Below are positions 1-8,017 of a stretch of DNA of 64,000 bases, piece after piece (positions within the stretch are counted from its first letter, which is position 1; each line of letters begins with the position of its first letter). The DNA is taken from assembly GCF_053078305.1 (NCBI RefSeq), contig NZ_CP166879.1; one strand, 5' to 3'. The notes below the pieces were generated by a model. The model made no database searches. It was not told where the DNA came from and saw only the letters and a list, made by a program, of their open reading frames with translations. Made by a program: the position numbers and the translations under genes.

Positions 1-2325
1 CTGATTGGCGGTGTGCCCGCGATCTTTCAGCCATGCGTTCAGGCAGACGCGGGTTGCCCGCAGTGCTTCACCCTCAGGCCAGCCGGTGATACCCAGACGG
101 GTTGCCAGTTCACCCGCCATCGCCACCAGTGCAAAGCGATTCACAGCCCGGCCCACCTGGTTGCCTGCATCTTTCGGAGTCAGGGCGGCAGCATATTCCT
201 TCATCAGCGATTTTGCCTGTGCCGTTAGTCCGTTAAGATCAGCGGTCAGTGCTTTCAGCCACTCCCGGAACGGCGAACCGTAGTAGCAGGACGTGGCCCA
301 TTCAAGATGCTCTGCCAGAGCCTTGCCGCTGTCGAAGCCGTGCAGCTCCTCAAAAACGCCAAACTTCCCGGAATCGCTGGGGATCTGGATCATCCTGACT
401 TCCATCCCGGCAAAAGTACGCTCACCGGCCTTTGCCGCATGTTCGGTCAGAGATAACTCGCCAGTTGAAAAGAACAACAGGCGCCACTGCTTACGGGTAC
501 GCAGCTCACCGTCCGTACCGGCACGACCCTTGCCCTGACCGTTTGCCAGCATGTAGGCGATACTGCCTGCCTCGCGTCCGTCAACTTCCCGGATCTCATC
601 AAGCATCATGGCGGCATCGTTGCGGCGGCTGGCGCATCCCTCCAGCGCGTTGCCGGTGGCCCGCCATGTCTGCCAGTAGTCAGGCCCGCCGCAGACGGAG
701 GTTGCCGCTTTCATGGTGGTGGTCTTACCGTCTGTCGATTCCCCTTTGAGGTGGTAGCCGCCGCCGTCCATACCAACCAGCCGTAACAGTGGTGCAGCAA
801 AGGCCAGGCTGACAGCAAATGCCACGCGGGAGTTGCCGGTACAGTAGCGGGATACGTTCTCCCGCCATTCCTCTGTTGTACCCGACACGCGGAAATCACG
901 CCCCTGCACGGAAGTGGTCTGGAGAATGACACCCTCTGCACCTTCACCGCTGACCTCATCCTGCAGGACGTAAACCTGACCATGCCAGCCAGTACGGCTG
1001 ACGCAGGTCACGCGGCGTTCCGGTTTACACAGTGAGATATATTCCATCAGGCGTGCGCGTGCCTCACCGGTGGTGCTGATATAAGACAGCCCGTTAACCA
1101 GCAGTACCCGGCGCAGTTCCTCACCACTGCCGCTCAGCATTTCCATCGGCATCGCCCAGCGGCGACGCTCACCCCATGTATCTTCCCATTCCAGCAGTCG
1201 TCCGAAGTTACCGCCATCGGCATCGCAGGTGATTGCCGTAACGCGCAGCGGGCTGCATATTTTGACGTTCTGGATCTCCGTCTCACCGTTGCGCTGTACC
1301 TGCTTTTCATACCAGAGATATTCCTGGGTAAGACGGAACCCGTGCGGCAGTTGCGTGCGGCCTTCCCCGCACAGTACCAGACCGTTGCGAAAGACTTCAC
1401 GGGCACGGGTAATACCGTGCTCCCGATGAAAGTCATTCCAGTCAGCCTTAATCTCTCCTGGTGGCAGCGTCATCCAGCCGCCAACAGCTTTTGCCGCCCG
1501 TTCAGCAAAGGCTCTGCCGGGATTCTCCCCCCCGTCCTGAAAATCGTTATCACCGGCGATGATAATTTTTACCTCAGGCCAGCGTGCCCGCAGCGACTGC
1601 GCCACATTGGGCAGGTTGCCCGCAGATATGGCAGCCACTACGCATCCGGCAGTGAGCTGGCTTACCGTCAGCGCCGTAGCGTAACCTTCGGTAATCACCA
1701 CCTGTACCGGTGGTTCAGACGGTAACGGGCTGAGCGACACAAACGCGCCTTTCATCGTGCTGCCGGGCAGTATGCTTTTTTCACCCGTCGGGGCGATAAG
1801 CTGTGCACCGGTCACGGCTCCGGTGTTGGTCGTGAGTGGTAACAGCAGAGAACCGGCAGGAAAATCCTTACCGCTGATATGCTGCACGCTTCCGGTCAGA
1901 GAGGCTGGGTATCCGGCGAACCCTTTTCCTGTCAGATAGGCGCTTTCTCCCGTGTGGCTCTCTTTCATCAGCGCCGCCACGGTAAGACCCATGTCGCGTT
2001 TAGGGGCTTTTTGTCTGGCAGGCTTAACAGGCAGTTCCTGCACATCCGGCACATTAAGCATCTGCGCCACCTCCTGCGCAGCCTTTCTGACGCTGTAACC
2101 GGTTACGAGCTTAACCAGATCCAGACCGTCACCATTGCCACACTGGCTGCAGATCCACGTCCCGCGCCCGTCAAGGTCATCAAGGCGAAAACGATCCTTG
2201 CCCCCACATTTCGGGCAGGGACCGTGCCTGCCGTTTTCAGGTACATCAATACGCAGCATCTGCAGAATAACGGGCCATTTCCCCCGCGCGGCGGCTGAAA
2301 TCTGCGTAACCGTCTGTATTGTCAT
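1..2325 (-). CDS. P4 alpha-like DNA primase-helicase (zinc-ribbon, Toprim and P-loop NTPase regions); 3' end runs off the window
   Basis: Hand translation of the minus strand from ATG at 2325 stays open to position 1 (about 775 codons). N-terminus has CPKCGG...CSQCG zinc-ribbon spacing, an internal IIAGDNDF Toprim-like acidic motif and a GESTDGKTT P-loop. Absent from the ORF track because it leaves the window. Start overlaps the upstream stop as ATGA. Confidence 0.8.
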   Translation of the reverse strand, partial: MTIQTVTQISAAARGKWPVILQMLRIDVPENGRHGPCPKCGGKDRFRLDDLDGRGTWICSQCGNGDGLDLVKLVTGYSVRKAAQEVAQMLNVPDVQELPVKPARQKAPKRDMGLTVAALMKESHTGESAYLTGKGFAGYPASLTGSVQHISGKDFPAGSLLLPLTTNTGAVTGAQLIAPTGEKSILPGSTMKGAFVSLSPLPSEPPVQVVITEGYATALTVSQLTAGCVVAAISAGNLPNVAQSLRARWPEVKIIIAGDNDFQDGGENPGRAFAERAAKAVGGWMTLPPGEIKADWNDFHREHGITRAREVFRNGLVLCGEGRTQLPHGFRLTQEYLWYEKQVQRNGETEIQNVKICSPLRVTAITCDADGGNFGRLLEWEDTWGERRRWAMPMEMLSGSGEELRRVLLVNGLSYISTTGEARARLMEYISLCKPERRVTCVSRTGWHGQVYVLQDEVSGEGAEGVILQTTSVQGRDFRVSGTTEEWRENVSRYCTGNSRVAFAVSLAFAAPLLRLVGMDGGGYHLKGESTDGKTTTMKAATSVCGGPDYWQTWRATGNALEGCASRRNDAAMMLDEIREVDGREAGSIAYMLANGQGKGRAGTDGELRTRKQWRLLFFSTGELSLTEHAAKAGERTFAGMEVRMIQIPSDSGKFGVFEELHGFDSGKALAEHLEWATSCYYGSPFREWLKALTADLNGLTAQAKSLMKEYAAALTPKDAGNQVGRAVNRFALVAMAGELATRLGITGWPEGEALRATRVCLNAWLKDRGHTANQ

Positions 2326-2705
2326 ACTTCCCCCTGATACAACGTCACACCGGTACTGCAGAAGTCATCAAAGGCCGCCGGAAGCGTGCGGTACATCTCC
2401 GCCATCACTTCACAGCCGCGCGCGGTCAGTACCGGCGGCGCGGTCAGCAGTGACGGCTCCAGCATGTCAGTCAGCAGTGCCAGCGCGGCAGCGGCGCCCT
2501 GTGCTTCGCCGTACTCGTTAATCAGTGCGCACTCGATATGCAGCGCAATGGCCATTTCAATACGCTCCACCGTCAGGCTGTGCGGACCATACTGATCACT
2601 GCCAGTTTCGTTCAGCATTTTCTGCCGCCATGCTGAAGCAATAGCCCGTCGGTAAAGCGCGGTGGTCATTTCTGCCGGGAAAATGGAAACCTGCGGCTGG
2701 TTCAT
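2322..2705 (-). CDS. hypothetical protein (127 aa), island operon member
   Basis: ORF with GGAGGTG Shine-Dalgarno immediately upstream of ATG at 2705; stop overlaps the primase ATG (ATGA coupling). Confidence 0.6.
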   Translation of the reverse strand: MNQPQVSIFPAEMTTALYRRAIASAWRQKMLNETGSDQYGPHSLTVERIEMAIALHIECALINEYGEAQGAAAALALLTDMLEPSLLTAPPVLTARGCEVMAEMYRTLPAAFDDFCSTGVTLYQGEV

Positions 2706-2986
2706 CTGGCACCTCCTTCAATCAGTGCGCAGCTGTGTGCAATATCCGTCAAATCTGCCCGCAGGTACTCCATCAGCGCGGCGACACCAGGCGCACAGCC
2801 TGCGTCCAGTGCTCCGGCCTGAGACGGGTATTCAGAAAAGAGAAGCTGGAGCATGTCGCAGGCATTTCTTGCGCGGATCAGCTTTCCGAAACCGTCCTCT
2901 GACAACCCATAGGCAAAAGCACCGGTATTGTGTTTTTCAGGCAAAGTGTGGCCCTGAGCACCGTTGTGCCCGTTTGAAATATTCAT
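2702..2986 (-). CDS. hypothetical protein (94 aa), island operon member
   Basis: ORF with GGAG Shine-Dalgarno upstream of ATG at 2986; stop overlaps the next gene start (2702-2705). Confidence 0.55.
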   Translation of the reverse strand: MNISNGHNGAQGHTLPEKHNTGAFAYGLSEDGFGKLIRARNACDMLQLLFSEYPSQAGALDAGCAPGVAALMEYLRADLTDIAHSCALIEGGAR

Positions 2987-3017
2987 CGTGAATTACTCCG
3001 TTTTCAGCGGTATTTTG

Positions 3018-3377
3018 TCAGAGAAACTTTGAATAGTGACCGTCGTCAGGCTCAGCAGAACGCCGTATGGTACGCTCCCGCCAGCGGATAAATAGCACAG
3101 ACGGATGCAGTGTCAGCGGGCCGGAACCACTACTGCCTGCAGGAGCTGGTGCAGGCTTAAAGAGCGGTACATCAAACAGGCGCGTATACCGCTGTTCAAA
3201 CCATGCCAGAGGGCAGGAAGAAAGCTGGTTGTCGCTGTCATGACGTATCAGCACTTCACAGCTGAATTCAGGATTAACCAGCGCCACAGAGGGCGAGGCT
3301 TCTATTAATCGGATAATCGTGACCGTCCAGCCACGTTCATGCCGCCAGCGTTCGCCGGGGTGCGGATAATTACGCAT
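3018..3377 (-). CDS. hypothetical protein (about 119 aa), island operon member
   Basis: Track ORF 3018..3407 begins on a non-ATG codon; an in-frame ATG at 3377 is preceded by GGAGGTGA, so the shorter start is preferred. Confidence 0.5.
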   Translation of the reverse strand: MRNYPHPGERWRHERGWTVTIIRLIEASPSVALVNPEFSCEVLIRHDSDNQLSSCPLAWFEQRYTRLFDVPLFKPAPAPAGSSGSGPLTLHPSVLFIRWRERTIRRSAEPDDGHYSKFL

Positions 3378-3546
3378 GTTCACCTCCGCAGGGAATGCGC
3401 CCGGCAAAGCTCAGTACACAGTCCGGGGCAAGTCTGCGCCGCGCTGACCGCTCATTATCTGCGGTGAGCCTTAACATCACAGGACGGGCATTGCGTTGAC
3501 TGCGGTTGATCGCCGCAAATAACCAGGTACACTTCTGTTTAGCCAT
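3370..3546 (-). CDS. small hypothetical protein (58 aa), first gene of the operon leading to the primase
   Basis: ATG at 3546 preceded by GAGG at good spacing; it is the C-terminal part of the track's 244-aa ORF 3370..4104, whose upstream portion looks non-coding. Confidence 0.35.
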   Translation of the reverse strand: MAKQKCTWLFAAINRSQRNARPVMLRLTADNERSARRRLAPDCVLSFAGRIPCGGEHA

Positions 3547-3621
3547 CTTCGTTACCTCATATAGCGGATTGGTCAGAAGCCCGGTTAGTGTTGCTGCACT
3601 GTCGGGCTTCGCACTCACAAG

Positions 3622-3713
3622 GTGAATCGCACCTTTAATTTTAAAGCTACCCTTAAGTGAATCGCACTTCAAGCTTTTTATTATCATTTTTTTTGCGTAT
3701 ACTGAATCGCACC
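3622..3713. promoter_or_regulatory. three direct repeats of TGAATCGCAC(C/T) in a divergent promoter region (candidate operator sites)
   Basis: Copies read directly at 3622-3633, 3657-3668 and 3702-3713, between the minus-strand operon start (3546) and the plus-strand small gene (3734). Confidence 0.5.
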
Positions 3714-3733
3714 TAACGCGAGGAGATCCAGTA

Positions 3734-3919
3734 ATGGCAACGAGTTCAACTAACAACAAGTCGCAGCAACTTAATGCTCGTTTCCCACATGATGTAGTTG
3801 CAGAATTAGAAAGCAACCTTGAAGATGGAGAAACGAAAGCGCAATTCATTGTTACTGCTGTAAAAGGCGAGATTAAACGCCGACAGCGCAGGAAAAATAA
3901 GCCAGAGCAAGGAAGTTGA
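3734..3919 (+). CDS. small basic protein (61 aa), possible ribbon-helix-helix-type DNA-binding regulator
   Basis: ATG at 3734 preceded by AGGAG; lysine/arginine-rich C-terminus; rho-independent terminator downstream. DNA-binding role is inferred. Confidence 0.55.
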   Translation: MATSSTNNKSQQLNARFPHDVVAELESNLEDGETKAQFIVTAVKGEIKRRQRRKNKPEQGS

Positions 3920-3982
3920 ATAGAGAAGCCAACAGACGTTCTCTCTGGTCCCATGTTAATTTCAGTAAGCGACAATATTTTT

Positions 3983-4016
3983 AAGCCCACAAATTCATTA
4001 TGTCGGGCTTTTTTAT
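3983..4016 (+). terminator. rho-independent terminator downstream of the 61-aa gene
   Basis: GC stem (aagccc...gggctt) followed by a T-run at 4009-4015. Confidence 0.5.
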
Positions 4017-4030
4017 TAGTGATTTTCATA

Positions 4031-4246
4031 TCACTCACCACGAGAGGCATATATTTGCTCTTGAATCCAGTGATCAACTTCGCTTTCAACGAATGAAATT
4101 GCACGAGTTCCTATTTTCACCGGACGGGGAAATGTATTGTTTGCAAGCTGTTTGTAAAGCCATGCCTTGCTACGCTGAACGCGTCTTAATACCTCTTTTG
4201 CTGAGATAAGAGTCTGATTATCTGAAAAGCTGTTTGCATATTCCAT
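4031..4246 (-). CDS. alpA: AlpA-family phage transcriptional regulator / excisionase-like protein (71 aa)
   Basis: Size and sequence character match AlpA-type regulators of P4-like islands; ATG at 4246 preceded by GGAG. Track ORF starts earlier at 4291. Confidence 0.7.
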   Translation of the reverse strand: MEYANSFSDNQTLISAKEVLRRVQRSKAWLYKQLANNTFPRPVKIGTRAISFVESEVDHWIQEQIYASRGE

Positions 4247-4530
4247 CTTGTTACTCCGTGTTCTACTTAAGTTCACGGTGACTTTAAACACTGGGAAAAA
4301 GTGATTCTAGTGATAATGGAATCTATTAAGACAAACATTGATTCTATTGAAAAACAATAATCTCCACTGAAAAAAAGAAGTAATATTCATATGAAAGAAC
4401 ACGGAAAGAAGGAAATGCACAAAACAATAAAATTAATAAAATTCATATAGATAGGATGGAAAATCAAAAAATCATACGTCAAAAGGTATTATTACATTTT
4501 AACGATTCATATTACCTAGGAATTAGCACA

Positions 4531-4560
4531 GTATTACACCGTATTACATCGTATTACCCC
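4531..4560. repeat. three perfect tandem 10-bp repeats GTATTACNNC
   Basis: gtattacacc / gtattacatc / gtattacccc read directly in the AT-rich intergenic region between the 212-aa gene and alpA. Confidence 0.6.
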
Positions 4561-4622
4561 CTATAGCCCCTTAGAGCCTCTTGTGGCCCTTCTATTGAGA
4601 GATAGCCAGAAAATTAATAAAT

Positions 4623-5261
4623 TCACTCTCCGTATTTTATAATGTCTTTCCCCAGCTTTATTTTCTTATAAAACGTAGCTTTTTTAATCCCTTTCATTAG
4701 AATCTCATTCTCATTACAAAAAGAAACAATATCATTATATATAACACTATTATCGCTATAACTTACCTTTCCATGTCTCTTAAGCAATTCAATTAGTAAA
4801 TAAATTAATTTACAACTATAATTATCCTCATCATCTTTTCTGTACTGCCCTCTACCATTACTCCTTAATTTTTTACCAACTTCACATAATTCACTTCCTC
4901 CTAACGTCATTAGAATATCGCTCCAATCTTTATTTTTTACCTGTTGTCGTAATGCGTTCTCAATTCTCTCCTTAATCTCCACAGGTACAATACCTTCCCT
5001 CTGAAAGATATAAGCAGCAGTTAATAATAAGTTCGCCTCCACTTTTTGCGTGGCGGATACGTTTTTATATTCATTAATTAATTGTAGATTTCTGGTTATT
5101 GCCTTTCTTAATCTAATAACCTCTTTTAATTGAACCTCAGTCAATTCATCATTTTCGGTATCATAGTCAAAACCATTCATAGCAAGCGCCACTTCGTGTG
5201 GCGTTATGTAAGTTAACCTATTAAAATAAAACAAATTATTATCAAATTGAGTATTGTTCAT
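4623..5261 (-). CDS. hypothetical protein (212 aa), AT-rich orphan cargo gene immediately downstream of the integrase
   Basis: ATG at 5261 preceded by GGAGAG; clean ORF; visibly AT-rich and rich in K/N/I/E codons compared with flanking core genes; no motif I can recognise. Confidence 0.7.
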   Translation of the reverse strand: MNNTQFDNNLFYFNRLTYITPHEVALAMNGFDYDTENDELTEVQLKEVIRLRKAITRNLQLINEYKNVSATQKVEANLLLTAAYIFQREGIVPVEIKERIENALRQQVKNKDWSDILMTLGGSELCEVGKKLRSNGRGQYRKDDEDNYSCKLIYLLIELLKRHGKVSYSDNSVIYNDIVSFCNENEILMKGIKKATFYKKIKLGKDIIKYGE

Positions 5262-5290
5262 TTAAATCTCTCCGCAGCCCCCAATGGTAA

Positions 5291-6574
5291 TTATTTTCCA
5301 TGCATACGCGCAAAATCATATGGTGTGATAGATCCATTCTTATTAGCATCAATATAATCAGCCCACCATTGCAACATTAATCTTCTTTCTTCAAGATATT
5401 CGGAAGTATGCATATATGAACCTTTCACGTTTTTTCGTTCAACGTGGCTTAACTGTCTTTCAATGGCATCATCATTCCATAGTTTCGACTCACTTAGCGC
5501 ACCACGCGCCATAGTTCTAAACCCATGACCACATACTTCAGTTTTCGTATCATATCCCATTACACGTAAGGCGTTATTTACTGTATTTTCACTCATTACT
5601 TTTTTAGGATCATGATCGCTGGGAAATATAACCTCACCTTTACCACTCAAGGCATGTAAACGTTTAAAAATATCAAATGCTTGTTTGCTAAGCGGAACAA
5701 TATGTTCAGTTTTCATCTTCATCCCACGCTCAGAGTGTTTTACGCCGGGAATAGGCTTACGAATTCCGGGTATTGTCCACTCGCTTCGTTCAAAGTTAAC
5801 CTCACTCCAGCGAGCAAAACGCATCTCACTTGAACGTATAAATGTGAGTAGCGTTAATTCAACGGCAAGCCGTGTCATTAGTCGCCCTTTATAGCGTGAT
5901 AGTCTTTCAAGAAGCTCAGGAATTCTTTTTGGGGGTAGTGCTGGGTGGTGGGTTGCTTTAACGCTTAAAAGCGCTCCAGCCATATCGCATGCAGGATTTG
6001 ATTCAAGCAGGTCATTCTGCACACCAAAACGCATAATTGCGGTTACGCGCTGCATCAGTCGCTGCGCGACATCATGTTTACCTGCCGTATCGACAGCTTT
6101 GATTGGATTGAGAAGCTGGCTGGTTCTCAACGTTCTGGCATCGATTTGACCTATCGAGGGGAAAATATACTGCTCAAGTGTCAGCAGAACACGACGGCTA
6201 TGATCTTCGCTCCAAGTAAGGTTACTTGCGTGCCATTGCCTTGCGATAGTTTCAAATAAATATGCCCCCTCAATTTCAGCTTGTGCCCCCTTTTGCTCAG
6301 CTTTGGGGTCAATACCCTGAGACAACAATTTCTTTGCTGCATCGCGCTTACCCCGCGCTTCAGCCAAAGTGACAGTCGGGTATACACCAAAAGCGAGTCG
6401 ATCTTCCTTTTTGTCAGAGGGGCGGCGATATTTCATGCGCCAGTACTTAGAACCTTTAGGGGAGACCTCAAGATACAAGCCGCCTCCATCAGCCATTTTA
6501 TAAGCTTTCTCTTTCGGCTTTGCGGTCTCTATCTGGCGAGCGTTGAGTTTCATTTTGGGGGCACAAATCCTCAT
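5291..6574 (-). CDS. P4-type tyrosine integrase (site-specific recombinase)
   Basis: 427-aa ORF adjacent to the tRNA 3' end; sequence character matches P4-family integrases. True start may be the internal Met at 6553. Confidence 0.85.
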   Translation of the reverse strand: MRICAPKMKLNARQIETAKPKEKAYKMADGGGLYLEVSPKGSKYWRMKYRRPSDKKEDRLAFGVYPTVTLAEARGKRDAAKKLLSQGIDPKAEQKGAQAEIEGAYLFETIARQWHASNLTWSEDHSRRVLLTLEQYIFPSIGQIDARTLRTSQLLNPIKAVDTAGKHDVAQRLMQRVTAIMRFGVQNDLLESNPACDMAGALLSVKATHHPALPPKRIPELLERLSRYKGRLMTRLAVELTLLTFIRSSEMRFARWSEVNFERSEWTIPGIRKPIPGVKHSERGMKMKTEHIVPLSKQAFDIFKRLHALSGKGEVIFPSDHDPKKVMSENTVNNALRVMGYDTKTEVCGHGFRTMARGALSESKLWNDDAIERQLSHVERKNVKGSYMHTSEYLEERRLMLQWWADYIDANKNGSITPYDFARMHGK

Positions 6575-6717
6575 CGAATTGACATGCCCCCGATTATGCC
6601 CCCAAAAGAGGGTAGACTACAAGAGACCAACAAAGACCATTAGATACCATACTTTACTTGTTTTTTAAGGATTTTTTTGTATTTAGAGACTTCAGGAAAC
6701 GTCAAAAGAAGTGTTAA

Positions 6718-6802
6718 TGGTGCCGAAGGCCGGACTCGAACCGGCACGTATTTCTACGGTTGATTTTGAATCAACTGCGTCTACCGATTTCGCCACTTCG
6801 GC
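6718..6802 (-). tRNA. leuX: tRNA-Leu (anticodon CAA)
   Basis: Reverse complement reads GCCGAAGTGGCGAAATCGGTAGACGCAGTTGATTCAAAATCAACCGTAGAAATACGTGCCGGTTCGAGTCCGGCCTTCGGCACCA, with the CCA end facing the integrase. Confidence 0.95.
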
Positions 6803-6997
6803 ACTGAAGAGGTATGCGGAAAACGTTGTGGATTATACCTGTCGCACGCCACCATGCAAGCGCCAGCTTGCTCGCACCTCGCTAAGTGCTGAAATTTTCA
6901 GCATTGCATACAGCGATGTGTAACCTTTGTCACACTCCAGGCACCCCTCCCTGCCATGCTCTACACTTCCCAGACAACACCAGAGAAGGACCAAAAA

Positions 6998-8017
6998 ATG
7001 TCGATGATAAAAAGCTATGCCGCAAAAGAAGCGGGCGGCGAACTGGAACTTTATGAGTACGATCCCGGTGAATTGAAGCCACAAGATGTTGAAGTGCAGG
7101 TGGATTACTGCGGGATCTGCCATTCCGATCTGTCGATGATCGACAACGAATGGGGATTTTCACAATATCCACTGGTTGCCGGGCATGAGGTGATTGGTCG
7201 CGTAGTGGCGCTCGGGAGTGCCGCGCAGGATAAAGGTTTGCAGGTCGGTCAGCGTGTCGGGATTGGCTGGACGGCACGCAGCTGCGGGCATTGCGATGCC
7301 TGTATTAGCGGTAATCAGATCAACTGCGAGCAAGGTGCGGTGCCGACGATTTTGAATCGCGGCGGTTTTGCCGAGAAGTTGCGTGCGGACTGGCAATGGG
7401 TAATCCCACTGCCAGAAAATATCGACATTGAATCTGCTGGGCCGCTGTTGTGCGGCGGTATCACGGTCTTTAAACCACTGTTGATGCACCATATCACTGC
7501 CACCAGCCGCGTCGGCGTGATTGGTATTGGCGGGCTGGGGCATATCGCTATAAAACTTCTGCACGCAATGGGATGCGAGGTGACAGCCTTTAGTTCTAAT
7601 CCGGCGAAAGAGCAGGAAGTACTGGCGATGGGTGCCGATAAAGTGGTGAATAGCCGCGATCCGCAGGCACTGAAAACTCTGGCGGGGCAGTTTGATCTCA
7701 TTATCAATACTGTGAACGTCAGCCTCGACTGGCAGCCTTATTTTGAGGCGCTGACCTATGGCGGTAATTTCCATACGGTCGGTGCGGTTCTCACGCCGCT
7801 GTCTGTTCCGGCCTTTACGTTAATTGCGGGCGACCGCAGCATCTCTGGTTCTGCTACCGGCACGCCTTATGAGCTGCGAAAGCTGATGCGCTTTGCCGCC
7901 CGTAGCAAGGTTGCGCCGACCACCGAACTGTTCCCGATGTCGAAAATTAACGACGCCATCCAGCATGTGCGCGACGGTAAGGCGCGTTACCGCGTGGTGT
8001 TGAAAGCCGATTTTTGA
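6998..8017 (+). CDS. ahr: NADPH-dependent aldehyde reductase (zinc alcohol dehydrogenase family)
   Basis: Protein from [14 protein letters not shown] matches E. coli Ahr/YjgB (339 aa) as recalled; track ORF starts 14 codons earlier. Confidence 0.93.

Follow-up and report, generated by a model that had tools for sequence, protein, structure and literature searches.

Immunity in the satellite P4 is canonically RNA-based, and P4 is the textbook RNA-only case. For Gram-negative elements, the global repressor has been called "unclear," with induction running through AlpA activation (Fillol-Salom et al., PMC6092414), and the regulators in a census of satellites are AlpA, MerR, and Stl only (PMC10085698). 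In Escherichia coli K-12, translation of symE is repressed by the RNA SymR, whose promoter lies within the open reading frame (ORF) itself (PMC1891008). The locus considered here lies at positions 3547–3919 of a 64,000-nucleotide stretch of contig NZ_CP166879.1 (RefSeq assembly GCF_053078305.1), hereafter the window. It belongs to a P4-like satellite at leuX, in which the gene of a 61-residue protein of the YlcI/YnfO family sits between an AlpA/Vis-like gene and a leftward operon that starts with an Icd-like gene and includes a primase gene. Our reading, to which we assign a probability of about 65%, is that the locus is an immunity switch in which an Arc-like ribbon-helix-helix (RHH) repressor, three operators, and a SymR-like RNA replace the C4/CI RNA of P4. 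In the open-access literature, we found no paper on YlcI/YnfO function, on the motif described below, or on a protein repressor in P4-like satellites.

Three copies of TGAATCGCAC lie on the plus strand at 3623–3632, 3658–3667, and 3703–3712. Taken with the preceding base they read GTGAATCGCAC, GTGAATCGCAC, and CTGAATCGCAC, and a repeat finder groups these copies as well, placing them 35 and 45 bp apart. The initial annotation had placed three near-identical motifs at 3622, 3657, and 3702, and a scan for exact copies bears this out: no further exact copy of TGAATCGCAC occurs on either strand of the whole 64-kb window, and the six copies with one mismatch found elsewhere are at chance level (nine matches in total against 6.1 expected). 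A random 10-mer is expected about 0.12 times per 128 kb, and three copies inside 90 bp are far beyond chance. In the complete island of E. coli strain 98202 (L001), which is identical, the motif is again limited to the spacer between the 61-residue protein gene and the operon. The concern that the motif might be scattered at random frequency is answered by this confinement of exact copies to the locus, in the 64 kb and in L001 alike. The flanking features that had been described are all present. To the left, the minus-strand operon begins with the Icd-like gene (3370–3546; 58 residues; NF033153, "host cell division inhibitor Icd-like," 81 bits), with its ATG at 3546 (CAT at 3544–3546) and Shine-Dalgarno (SD) sequence GAGGT. 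To the right, the plus-strand gene (3734–3919) has its ATG at 3734, a strong ribosome-binding site (SD GAGGAG, 3720–3725), and its own intrinsic terminator at 3983–4015 (plus strand; stem AAGCCCAC.../...GTCGGGCTT, then a T-run).

The repeats coincide with what appear to be the core elements of two promoters, which were inferred by consensus from the invariant positions of a 17-sequence spacer alignment. The predicted leftward promoter, that of the Icd-like/primase operon (3644–3672, minus strand), consists of a −35 element TTGAAG (3672–3667), a 17-nucleotide spacer, and a −10 element TAGCTT (3649–3644), with +1 at about 3636–3638; the TTG of the −35 and the TAnnnT of the −10 are invariant in the 17 divergent sequences. 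The predicted promoter of the 61-residue protein gene (3675–3703, plus strand) consists of a −35 element TTTTTA (3675–3680), a 17-nucleotide spacer, and a −10 element TATACT (3698–3703), with +1 at about 3710. Its −10 is conserved as TATACT, CATAAT, or TATAAT in the same alignment, and clade-2 loci have a better −35, TTTACA. The two −35 elements stand back to back with 3 bp between them. On this map, the first predicted operator (O1, GTGAATCGCAC, 3622–3632) would fall roughly between +5 and +15 in the leftward transcript, the second (O2, GTGAATCGCAC, 3657–3667) fills the 17-nucleotide spacer of the leftward promoter, and the third (O3, CTGAATCGCAC, 3702–3712) covers the last two −10 bases and the predicted +1 of the other promoter. 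Operator positions on both promoters argue for repression of the operon and for autoregulation. The earlier proposal that the repeats gate expression of the replication module gains from this predicted overlap with core elements of two conserved promoters.

Comparison with related loci points to the protein as the reader of these sites. Thirty related loci were gathered through homologues of the protein; 24 of them are non-redundant and carry the cassette, and they come from at least 12 genera. The 61-residue ORF, whose conservation in related islands had been in question, is present in these loci. The three sites stand at fixed distances from the ATG in the 24 loci, at −32, at −77, and at −112 or −99/−102, within surrounding sequence that has diverged; O2 at −77 and O3 at −32 are found in all cassette loci, and O1 at −112/−99 occurs in either orientation. 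The 24 loci fall, without exception, into six classes that pair a β-strand sequence with a motif. In the QQLNARF class (KSQQLNARFPH), the motif is GTGAATCGCAC in 14 of 14 non-redundant loci, and in the QKTARV/I class (QKTARV(I)PL), it is GTGACT[TC][GC]CAC. The FMTARV, KMQARV, KLEARV, and QVSVRL classes have GTGATACACAC, GTGTGCTCCAC, GTGTCAGCCAC, and GTGAACACCAC, respectively. The frame GTG-N5-CAC and residue Arg16 are constant, the center of the site covaries with residues 12 and 14, and the sites of one locus change in concert when the β-strand changes. Such concerted change of three sites requires a common reader. From the conserved positions and this covariation, we infer that the three repeats are operators of the 61-residue protein, in agreement with the initial annotation.

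A distant homologue on a metagenomic contig (L031, 1562–1756; P0122, with a KLHARV strand) has no recognizable three-site array next to its gene. In almost every related locus, an Icd-like gene comes first. In three E. coli loci (L020–L022, 2600–4310), the cassette of repressor, operators, antisense RNA, and Icd-like gene is set in a backbone like that of a phage-inducible chromosomal island (PICI), with a D5_N/Pox_D5 primase and a 120-residue small-terminase-like protein that has a weak DUF3950 match; its presence there indicates that the module moves between satellite families.

Could the common reader be a factor other than the 61-residue protein, such as AlpA/Vis, the primase (with the repeats as origin iterons), the integrase (with the repeats as arm-type sites), or a host protein? 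Short repeats in P4 ori and crr are bound by the alpha protein, attP carries arm repeats by annotation, and GGTGAA may resemble part of the P4 iteron. In Morganella, Proteus, Dickeya, and Xenorhabdus, however, the motif stays the same even though AlpA has no more than 57% identity or is undetectable, tblastn detects no Icd-like protein, and primase identity is only about 40%. Loci with two primase families, TOPRIM/DUF927 and D5_N/Pox_D5, likewise share the clade-2 motif. Across the loci compared, the motif class follows only the predicted β-strand of the 61-residue protein and not the neighbor genes, and the sites coincide with promoter core elements. A reader other than the protein is, in our estimation, improbable.

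The repeats could also act in RNA, forming hairpins or complementary boxes within the leader of the leftward transcript or within a plus-strand RNA, after the manner of seqA, seqB, and seqC of P4. O1 lies in an extended palindrome (AAGGTG-AATCG-CACCTT, 3619–3635), its hairpin is the sole plus-strand terminator-like hairpin flagged by a generic scan, and O1 and O2 are each able to form a short hairpin (AAGGUG-loop-CACCUU); P4 immunity itself uses repeated RNA boxes (general knowledge, with C4 and a1b1 matches in P4). The flanks of O3, however, form no hairpin, and no single predicted transcript carries all three sites: the leftward one would start downstream of O2 and O3, and that of the 61-residue protein gene downstream of O1 and O2. 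Site 1, moreover, is reversed in one E. coli lineage and in Xenorhabdus, Cedecea, Salmonella, and Cronobacter, although close relatives have it in direct orientation. A flip of this kind, as between the close relatives L015 and L017, would alter RNA complementarity and be neutral for a symmetric dimer; it thus points to recognition as DNA, as expected of a symmetric DNA-binding dimer and not of an RNA element. We regard action at the RNA level as highly improbable. The same inversions limit one earlier description: the repeats are direct in this window, but direct orientation is not a fixed feature of the array.

What kind of protein would read the sites? The 61-residue protein belongs to the YlcI/YnfO family (NF041551, 65.7 bits against a cutoff of 30), with residues 9–50 matching positions 1–42 of the 42-position model; the Prokaryotic Genome Annotation Pipeline (PGAP) name "YlcI/YnfO family" is used in all matching E. 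coli genomes, the PHROG match is to family 949, of unknown function, and one UniRef entry names the protein "CopG family." Modeled as a dimer, the protein adopts the β-α-α fold of an RHH protein, with the two chains intertwined through a two-stranded antiparallel sheet, and the β-strand, residues 10–18, includes Q12-L-N14-A-R16-F-P18, which is the Q-x-N-x-R-x-P pattern of Arc. Beyond this fold, the chain has a basic tail and no additional domain that could bind a toxin. An AlphaFold 2 model of the monomer (predicted local distance difference test score, 68; no strand) was set aside, and a single-chain dimer model was used instead. The protein is therefore predicted to be an Arc-like RHH DNA-binding repressor, and both the initial idea of a small DNA-binding protein and the fold prediction that had been called for come out, on this model, in favor of an RHH dimer. 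Homologues 60–97% identical occur in Escherichia, Klebsiella, Salmonella, Citrobacter, Enterobacter, Hafnia, Morganella, Proteus, Pectobacterium, Dickeya, Yersinia, Xenorhabdus, Cronobacter, and other genera. An exhaustive profile search of 1.84 billion representatives returned 89 clusters only, and none of 50,697 phage genomes (INPHARED) gave a tblastn match to the protein. Variants of 103 residues, with a C-terminal extension of about 45 residues, are found in Yersinia and Enterobacter (P0080/P0081; L023/L024, 3001–3312), and in these two loci sites 1 and 3 are degenerate (GTGAATCGCAA, CTGAATACCAC).

The locus also appears to encode an RNA. Within the 90-nucleotide leader ahead of the Icd-like gene are two conserved hairpins, whose pattern of variation tells which strand is folded. 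Among 25 non-Watson-Crick cells in 16 sequences, 18 are A·C on the minus strand, equivalent to G·U on the plus strand, and one is G·U on the minus strand, an asymmetry that indicates selection for structure on the plus strand, antisense to the mRNA. The plus-strand consensus fold has 25 pairs, with 95.7% of cells paired and compensatory changes in 14 pairs; none of 500 shuffled controls was as good, and slid controls were about 40% paired. Read as mRNA structure on the minus strand, the leader fold was rejected, given its many A·C mismatches and a consensus energy of −11.6 kcal/mol, as opposed to −30.7 kcal/mol on the plus strand. In this satellite, segment 3541–3622 folds at −31 kcal/mol (z = −3.3). 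We therefore predict a SymR-like cis-antisense RNA at 3541–3613 (plus strand) that overlaps both the SD and the initiation codon of the Icd-like gene, with an anti-SD (CCUC) in the loop of its 5′ stem-loop and a 3′ hairpin at 3576–3610. Its 3′ hairpin arm (3600–3609) and that of the terminator of the 61-residue protein gene (4001–4010) share the same 10 nucleotides, TGTCGGGCTT. Inverted repeats between 3532–3605 and the coding region of the 61-residue protein are not nested and are 79–81% complementary, and they were treated as chance.

The predicted promoter of this RNA lies inside codons 5–14 of the Icd-like gene (3506–3533, plus strand), with a −35 element TTGATC (3506–3511), a 16-nucleotide spacer, and a −10 element TACACT (3528–3533), and the predicted start, 3541, is the complement of codon 2. 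A TAnnnT 7–8 nucleotides before AGCCAU is invariant in 16 sequences, and the codons it overlaps encode C, F, S, R, H, or D; invariance over codons for differing residues indicates constraint at the nucleotide level, that is, a −10 element. K-12 symR has the same promoter geometry (TAGAAT-N7-AGUCAU). In embedded promoter, start, and structure, the satellite RNA, as a predicted transcript, has the architecture of SymR. R1, a covariance model made from these satellite RNAs, scores 72.8 bits in the window and 68–77 bits in held-out loci and has no match in P4. With default filters R1 missed K-12 symR; with filters off it gave 33 bits, exactly at the annotated 5′ end. The comparison suggests that symER is related to this mobile-element module. 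The conserved cassette is the repressor, its three operators, the antisense RNA, and the Icd-like gene. Set side by side, K-12 symR (L033, 7836–7912) and window positions 3541–3613 are matched reciprocally by their covariance models and have the blocks AG[C/U]CAUA, UUGUG[A/G]UUAG, and GUGUUGG..GCAC in common. On the metagenomic contig L031, the antisense-RNA model matches at 1016–1093 with 36 bits, about 470 nucleotides upstream of the repressor homologue gene, with an extra 53-residue ORF between.

The RNA immunity of P4, by comparison, is absent here. Searches of positions 1–7000 of the window with C4 (RF01695), c4-a1b1 (RF03163), and isrK (RF01394) gave no match at E ≤ 1, and the same search in P4 found C4 (74.9 bits), isrK (60.8 bits), and a1b1 (44.1 bits) between orf88/vis and epsilon. 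The Icd-like protein is 52% identical to residues 86–131 of the former P4 "cI ORF," the reading frame immediately downstream of the C4 RNA. This homology, together with the position of C4 in P4, indicates that the two regions are positionally homologous and that the RNA module has been replaced. Of 5426 complete E. coli genomes, 2466 have a P4/P1-type C4 region and 609 (312 at ≥80% coverage) have the present cassette. The module is carried by about 6–11% of complete E. coli genomes, and homologues extend across Enterobacterales. The initial annotation had anticipated a regulatory solution different from that of P4, and that much stands, C4, a1b1, and isrK being absent and a protein with its putative sites present. 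As a protein-only solution it does not stand: the locus is not purely protein-based, and the predicted SymR-like RNA layer had been missed.

How might these parts work together? One repressor dimer would bind each 11-bp pseudo-palindrome GTG-N5-CAC, the invariant Arg16 reading the outer GTG/CAC and the variable residues 12 and 14 reading the central bases. Occupation of O2, in the promoter spacer, and of O1, at +5 to +15, would block the leftward promoter, which would otherwise drive the genes for the Icd-like protein, the DUF5375 protein, and the primase and, further on, sid, psu, and delta. Occupation of O3, over the −10 and +1, would limit the repressor's own promoter and so set the repressor level; by analogy with lambda OR2 and PRM, O2 (centered near −48 relative to the repressor promoter) might in addition activate it. 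A leftward transcript that escapes would be met by the ~73-nucleotide plus-strand RNA, which would block translation of the Icd-like gene, and polarity from this block could lower expression of the downstream primase operon, by analogy with SymR on symE and with c4 on icd-ant in P1. Repressor and antisense RNA together probably keep the satellite's replication genes silent. A route to derepression may be built into the gene order. A terminator scan found no minus-strand terminator-like site separating alpA from the leftward operon, and transcription from the AlpA promoter could consequently run antisense through the repressor gene into the operon. Such read-through might lift repression, much as PLL of P4 overrides PLE immunity.

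It is conceivable that the protein binds these sites and is nonetheless not the maintenance repressor. It could be a transient, Arc- or Cro-like shut-off factor or an autoregulator, or it may supply the DNA-binding partner in a system that controls the Icd-like division inhibitor as a toxin, with quiescence set elsewhere (by lack of AlpA activation, or by the RNA alone). Arc, the closest structural and sequence analogue, acts early in P22 infection and not in lysogeny (general knowledge), the −10 of the leftward promoter is weak, and the E. coli PICIs are induced by AlpA activation with no repressor known (PMC6092414). The position of the gene speaks otherwise: no other gene is on its strand, it has a promoter and a terminator to itself, and it diverges from the replication operon, which is the classical place of a maintenance repressor; at the operon promoter, moreover, the putative operators cover the spacer and the +1. 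As to toxin control, the cassette is always accompanied by the Icd-like gene, but the protein has its basic tail only and lacks an extra toxin-binding domain. A type I toxin-antitoxin pair of Icd-like protein and antisense RNA was also considered; what would speak for it here is the family name of the Icd-like protein and the antisense geometry. We consider a role short of maintenance repression unlikely, though worth keeping in view, and continue to favor the immunity switch.

Several observations weigh against the immunity switch as we have drawn it. A generic promoter scan called none of the predicted promoters, and both of those in the spacer are weak by consensus (−10 TAGCTT of the leftward promoter, −35 TTTTTA of the other); weak consensus together with the lack of a scan call implies that an activator may be needed. 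The site spacings, 35/45 bp here and 22–25/45 bp in other lineages, are wider than those of classical cooperative RHH arrays, and in some clade-2 loci O3 is unlike O1/O2 (CTGAACGCCAC compared with GTGACTTGCAC). Concerted change of the sites does not by itself name their reader, and because the operators lie less than 200 bp from the gene, the covariation is confounded by linkage, with descent explaining part of it. For the fold, a Pfam scan of the protein gave no domain at E ≤ 0.001, a sequence search of the PDB with the family profile gave only a spurious match (E = 1.9), and no significant RHH sequence-profile match was obtained; hhalign of the family against Arc returned a probability of only 27%, although the β-strand residues align. 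The dimer model itself was built with an artificial 30-residue linker and a 13-row alignment, and two of its five models are poor. For the RNA, the Rfam symR model (RF01809) matches the window over its full length at 26.3 bits, and seven other loci at the same place and strand, also over full length, at 24.2–38.3 bits, all short of the gathering score of 61. A U-tract follows the second hairpin in most loci but not in this window; the 3′ end here may therefore lie after the O1 hairpin (3619–3645; about 3642), or the transcript may read into the 61-residue protein gene.

The surroundings of the locus are those of a P4-like satellite integrated at leuX, as judged by the gene content of the identical island L001. 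The window covers the satellite only from the integrase gene to the 5′ part of the primase gene, and the remainder is known from L001. The attachment end is tRNA-Leu(CAA) leuX (6718–6802, minus strand), with ahr/idnK/idnD as outer neighbors, and it adjoins the gene of a P4-type integrase (5291–6553/6574, minus strand; ORF list and annotation). A 212-residue ORF between int and alpA (4623–5261, minus strand) matched no NCBIfam family, its sole match being PHROG 30524 (E = 3e-108, function unknown). The AlpA/Vis-like regulator (4031–4246, minus strand; Pfam Phage_AlpA, 1e-11) is convergent with the 61-residue protein gene and co-directional with the operon. Beyond the Icd-like gene, the operon continues on the minus strand with ORFs of 119 residues (3018–3377) and 94 residues (2702–2986), both from the ORF list and the annotation of the identical island, and then with the DUF5375 protein (2322–2705) and the TOPRIM/DUF927 primase (start at 2325, running past the left end of the window), which are assigned from PGAP annotation of the identical island, ORFs, and PHROG matches. 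The 94-residue ORF showed no similarity to P4 epsilon. Beyond the primase, L001 has a gene at the sid position of P4, annotated "septation initiation protein," followed by psu, an ogr/delta-like gene, and AAA-ATPase cargo. The satellite thus has a tRNA-adjacent integrase, AlpA, a TOPRIM/DUF927 primase, a sid-position gene, Psu, and Ogr/Delta, by the L001 annotation.

Three further features of these surroundings were seen. After the delta-like gene, beyond the left end of the window (L001, 4984–8068), lie genes for a 745-residue AAA-family ATPase and a 280-residue hypothetical protein, at the position of the anti-phage cargo hotspot of P4. Upstream of alpA (4500–4575, minus strand), three copies of GTAATAC recur with a 10-nucleotide period (GGTAATACGAT GTAATACGGT GTAATACTGT), with more GTAATA-like copies nearby; these could be binding sites for AlpA/Vis or arm-type sites for the integrase. 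Between int and alpA, the Rfam int-alpA RNA (RF02996) exceeds its gathering score in L004 (6057–6125) and L023 (5844–5914) and falls below it in L015 (6113–6168; 23.7 bits, cut by the end of the locus), and it has no match in positions 1–7000 of the window.

Overall, we judge this to be a real and widespread switch that takes the place of textbook RNA immunity in the homologous position. Both kinds of control are known; what would be new is a protein-repressor/operator and antisense switch at the C4 position of P4. The module has so far been annotated merely as "YlcI/YnfO family protein," though it has the anatomy of a repressor/operator switch where P4 has the C4 RNA. We raise more tentatively, as somewhat short of an even chance, the broader idea that RHH protein, three operators, and SymR-like RNA form an unrecognized master immunity module of many Gram-negative satellites, P4-like and PICI-like, in which at least six operator specificities would constitute "immunity types," helper induction would act through an anti-repressor or AlpA-promoter read-through, and symER would be a relative of the RNA arm. 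If the switch itself is confirmed, the uncharacterized YlcI/YnfO family would acquire a function, and the missing repressor of Gram-negative satellites would have a testable candidate. The six pairs of β-strand and operator would offer a natural series for studies of RHH recognition and for orthogonal repressor parts, and the orphan chromosomal SymR RNA would be linked to mobile elements.

Of the systems described in other elements, immI of P22 (Mnt/Arc and sar, controlling ant) resembles the proposed switch in having a small RHH repressor with a Q-x-N-x-R-x-P strand, a divergent repressor gene, operators over back-to-back promoters, and a short cis-antisense RNA on the ribosome site of a downstream gene. 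It differs in that P22 has one 21-bp operator bound by a tetramer, whereas here there are three separated 11-bp sites and the likeness to Arc is weak in profile comparison. It differs also in that P22 controls an antirepressor and the satellite an Icd-like/primase operon, with an RNA that appears SymR-like rather than sar-like. The CI (C4) region of P4 and immI of P1 (c4-icd-ant) share with this locus the position between vis/alpA and the Icd-like ORF that heads the alpha operon, a homologous Icd-like gene, and, as predicted here, RNA control of icd translation. C4, however, is processed from the same strand, whereas the satellite RNA is predicted to be cis-antisense, and a protein repressor with operators is added here; P4 has neither the 61-residue protein nor the antisense RNA.

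SymR/SymE of K-12 (RF01809) is alike in its RNA of about 75 nucleotides, with a promoter inside the target ORF, a 5′ end complementary to codons 1–2 (AG[C/U]CAU), and two stem-loops, and also in that the target promoter is under a protein repressor, LexA in the case of symE (PMC1891008). The satellite departs from it in that its target is Icd-like and not the AbrB-fold SymE, its setting is a mobile satellite, and its putative repressor is an element-encoded RHH protein and not LexA. By general knowledge, pMV158/pLS1 (CopG and RNA II on repB) likewise places a replication gene under a small RHH repressor and a countertranscript at the translation start, but copG is co-transcribed with repB and has one pseudo-symmetric site, whereas here the gene is divergent and the sites are three; the likeness is one of layout. 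Finally, Stl of the Staphylococcus aureus pathogenicity islands, Rpr of Gram-positive PICIs, and lambda OR resemble the proposed switch in that the repressor gene is transcribed away from a satellite's excision/replication genes and three operators serve two back-to-back promoters, one operator overlapping the repressor's own. Stl, Rpr, and CI are helix-turn-helix proteins several times larger, and with the Stl/Rpr type of master repressor the satellite has just the divergent gene order in common.

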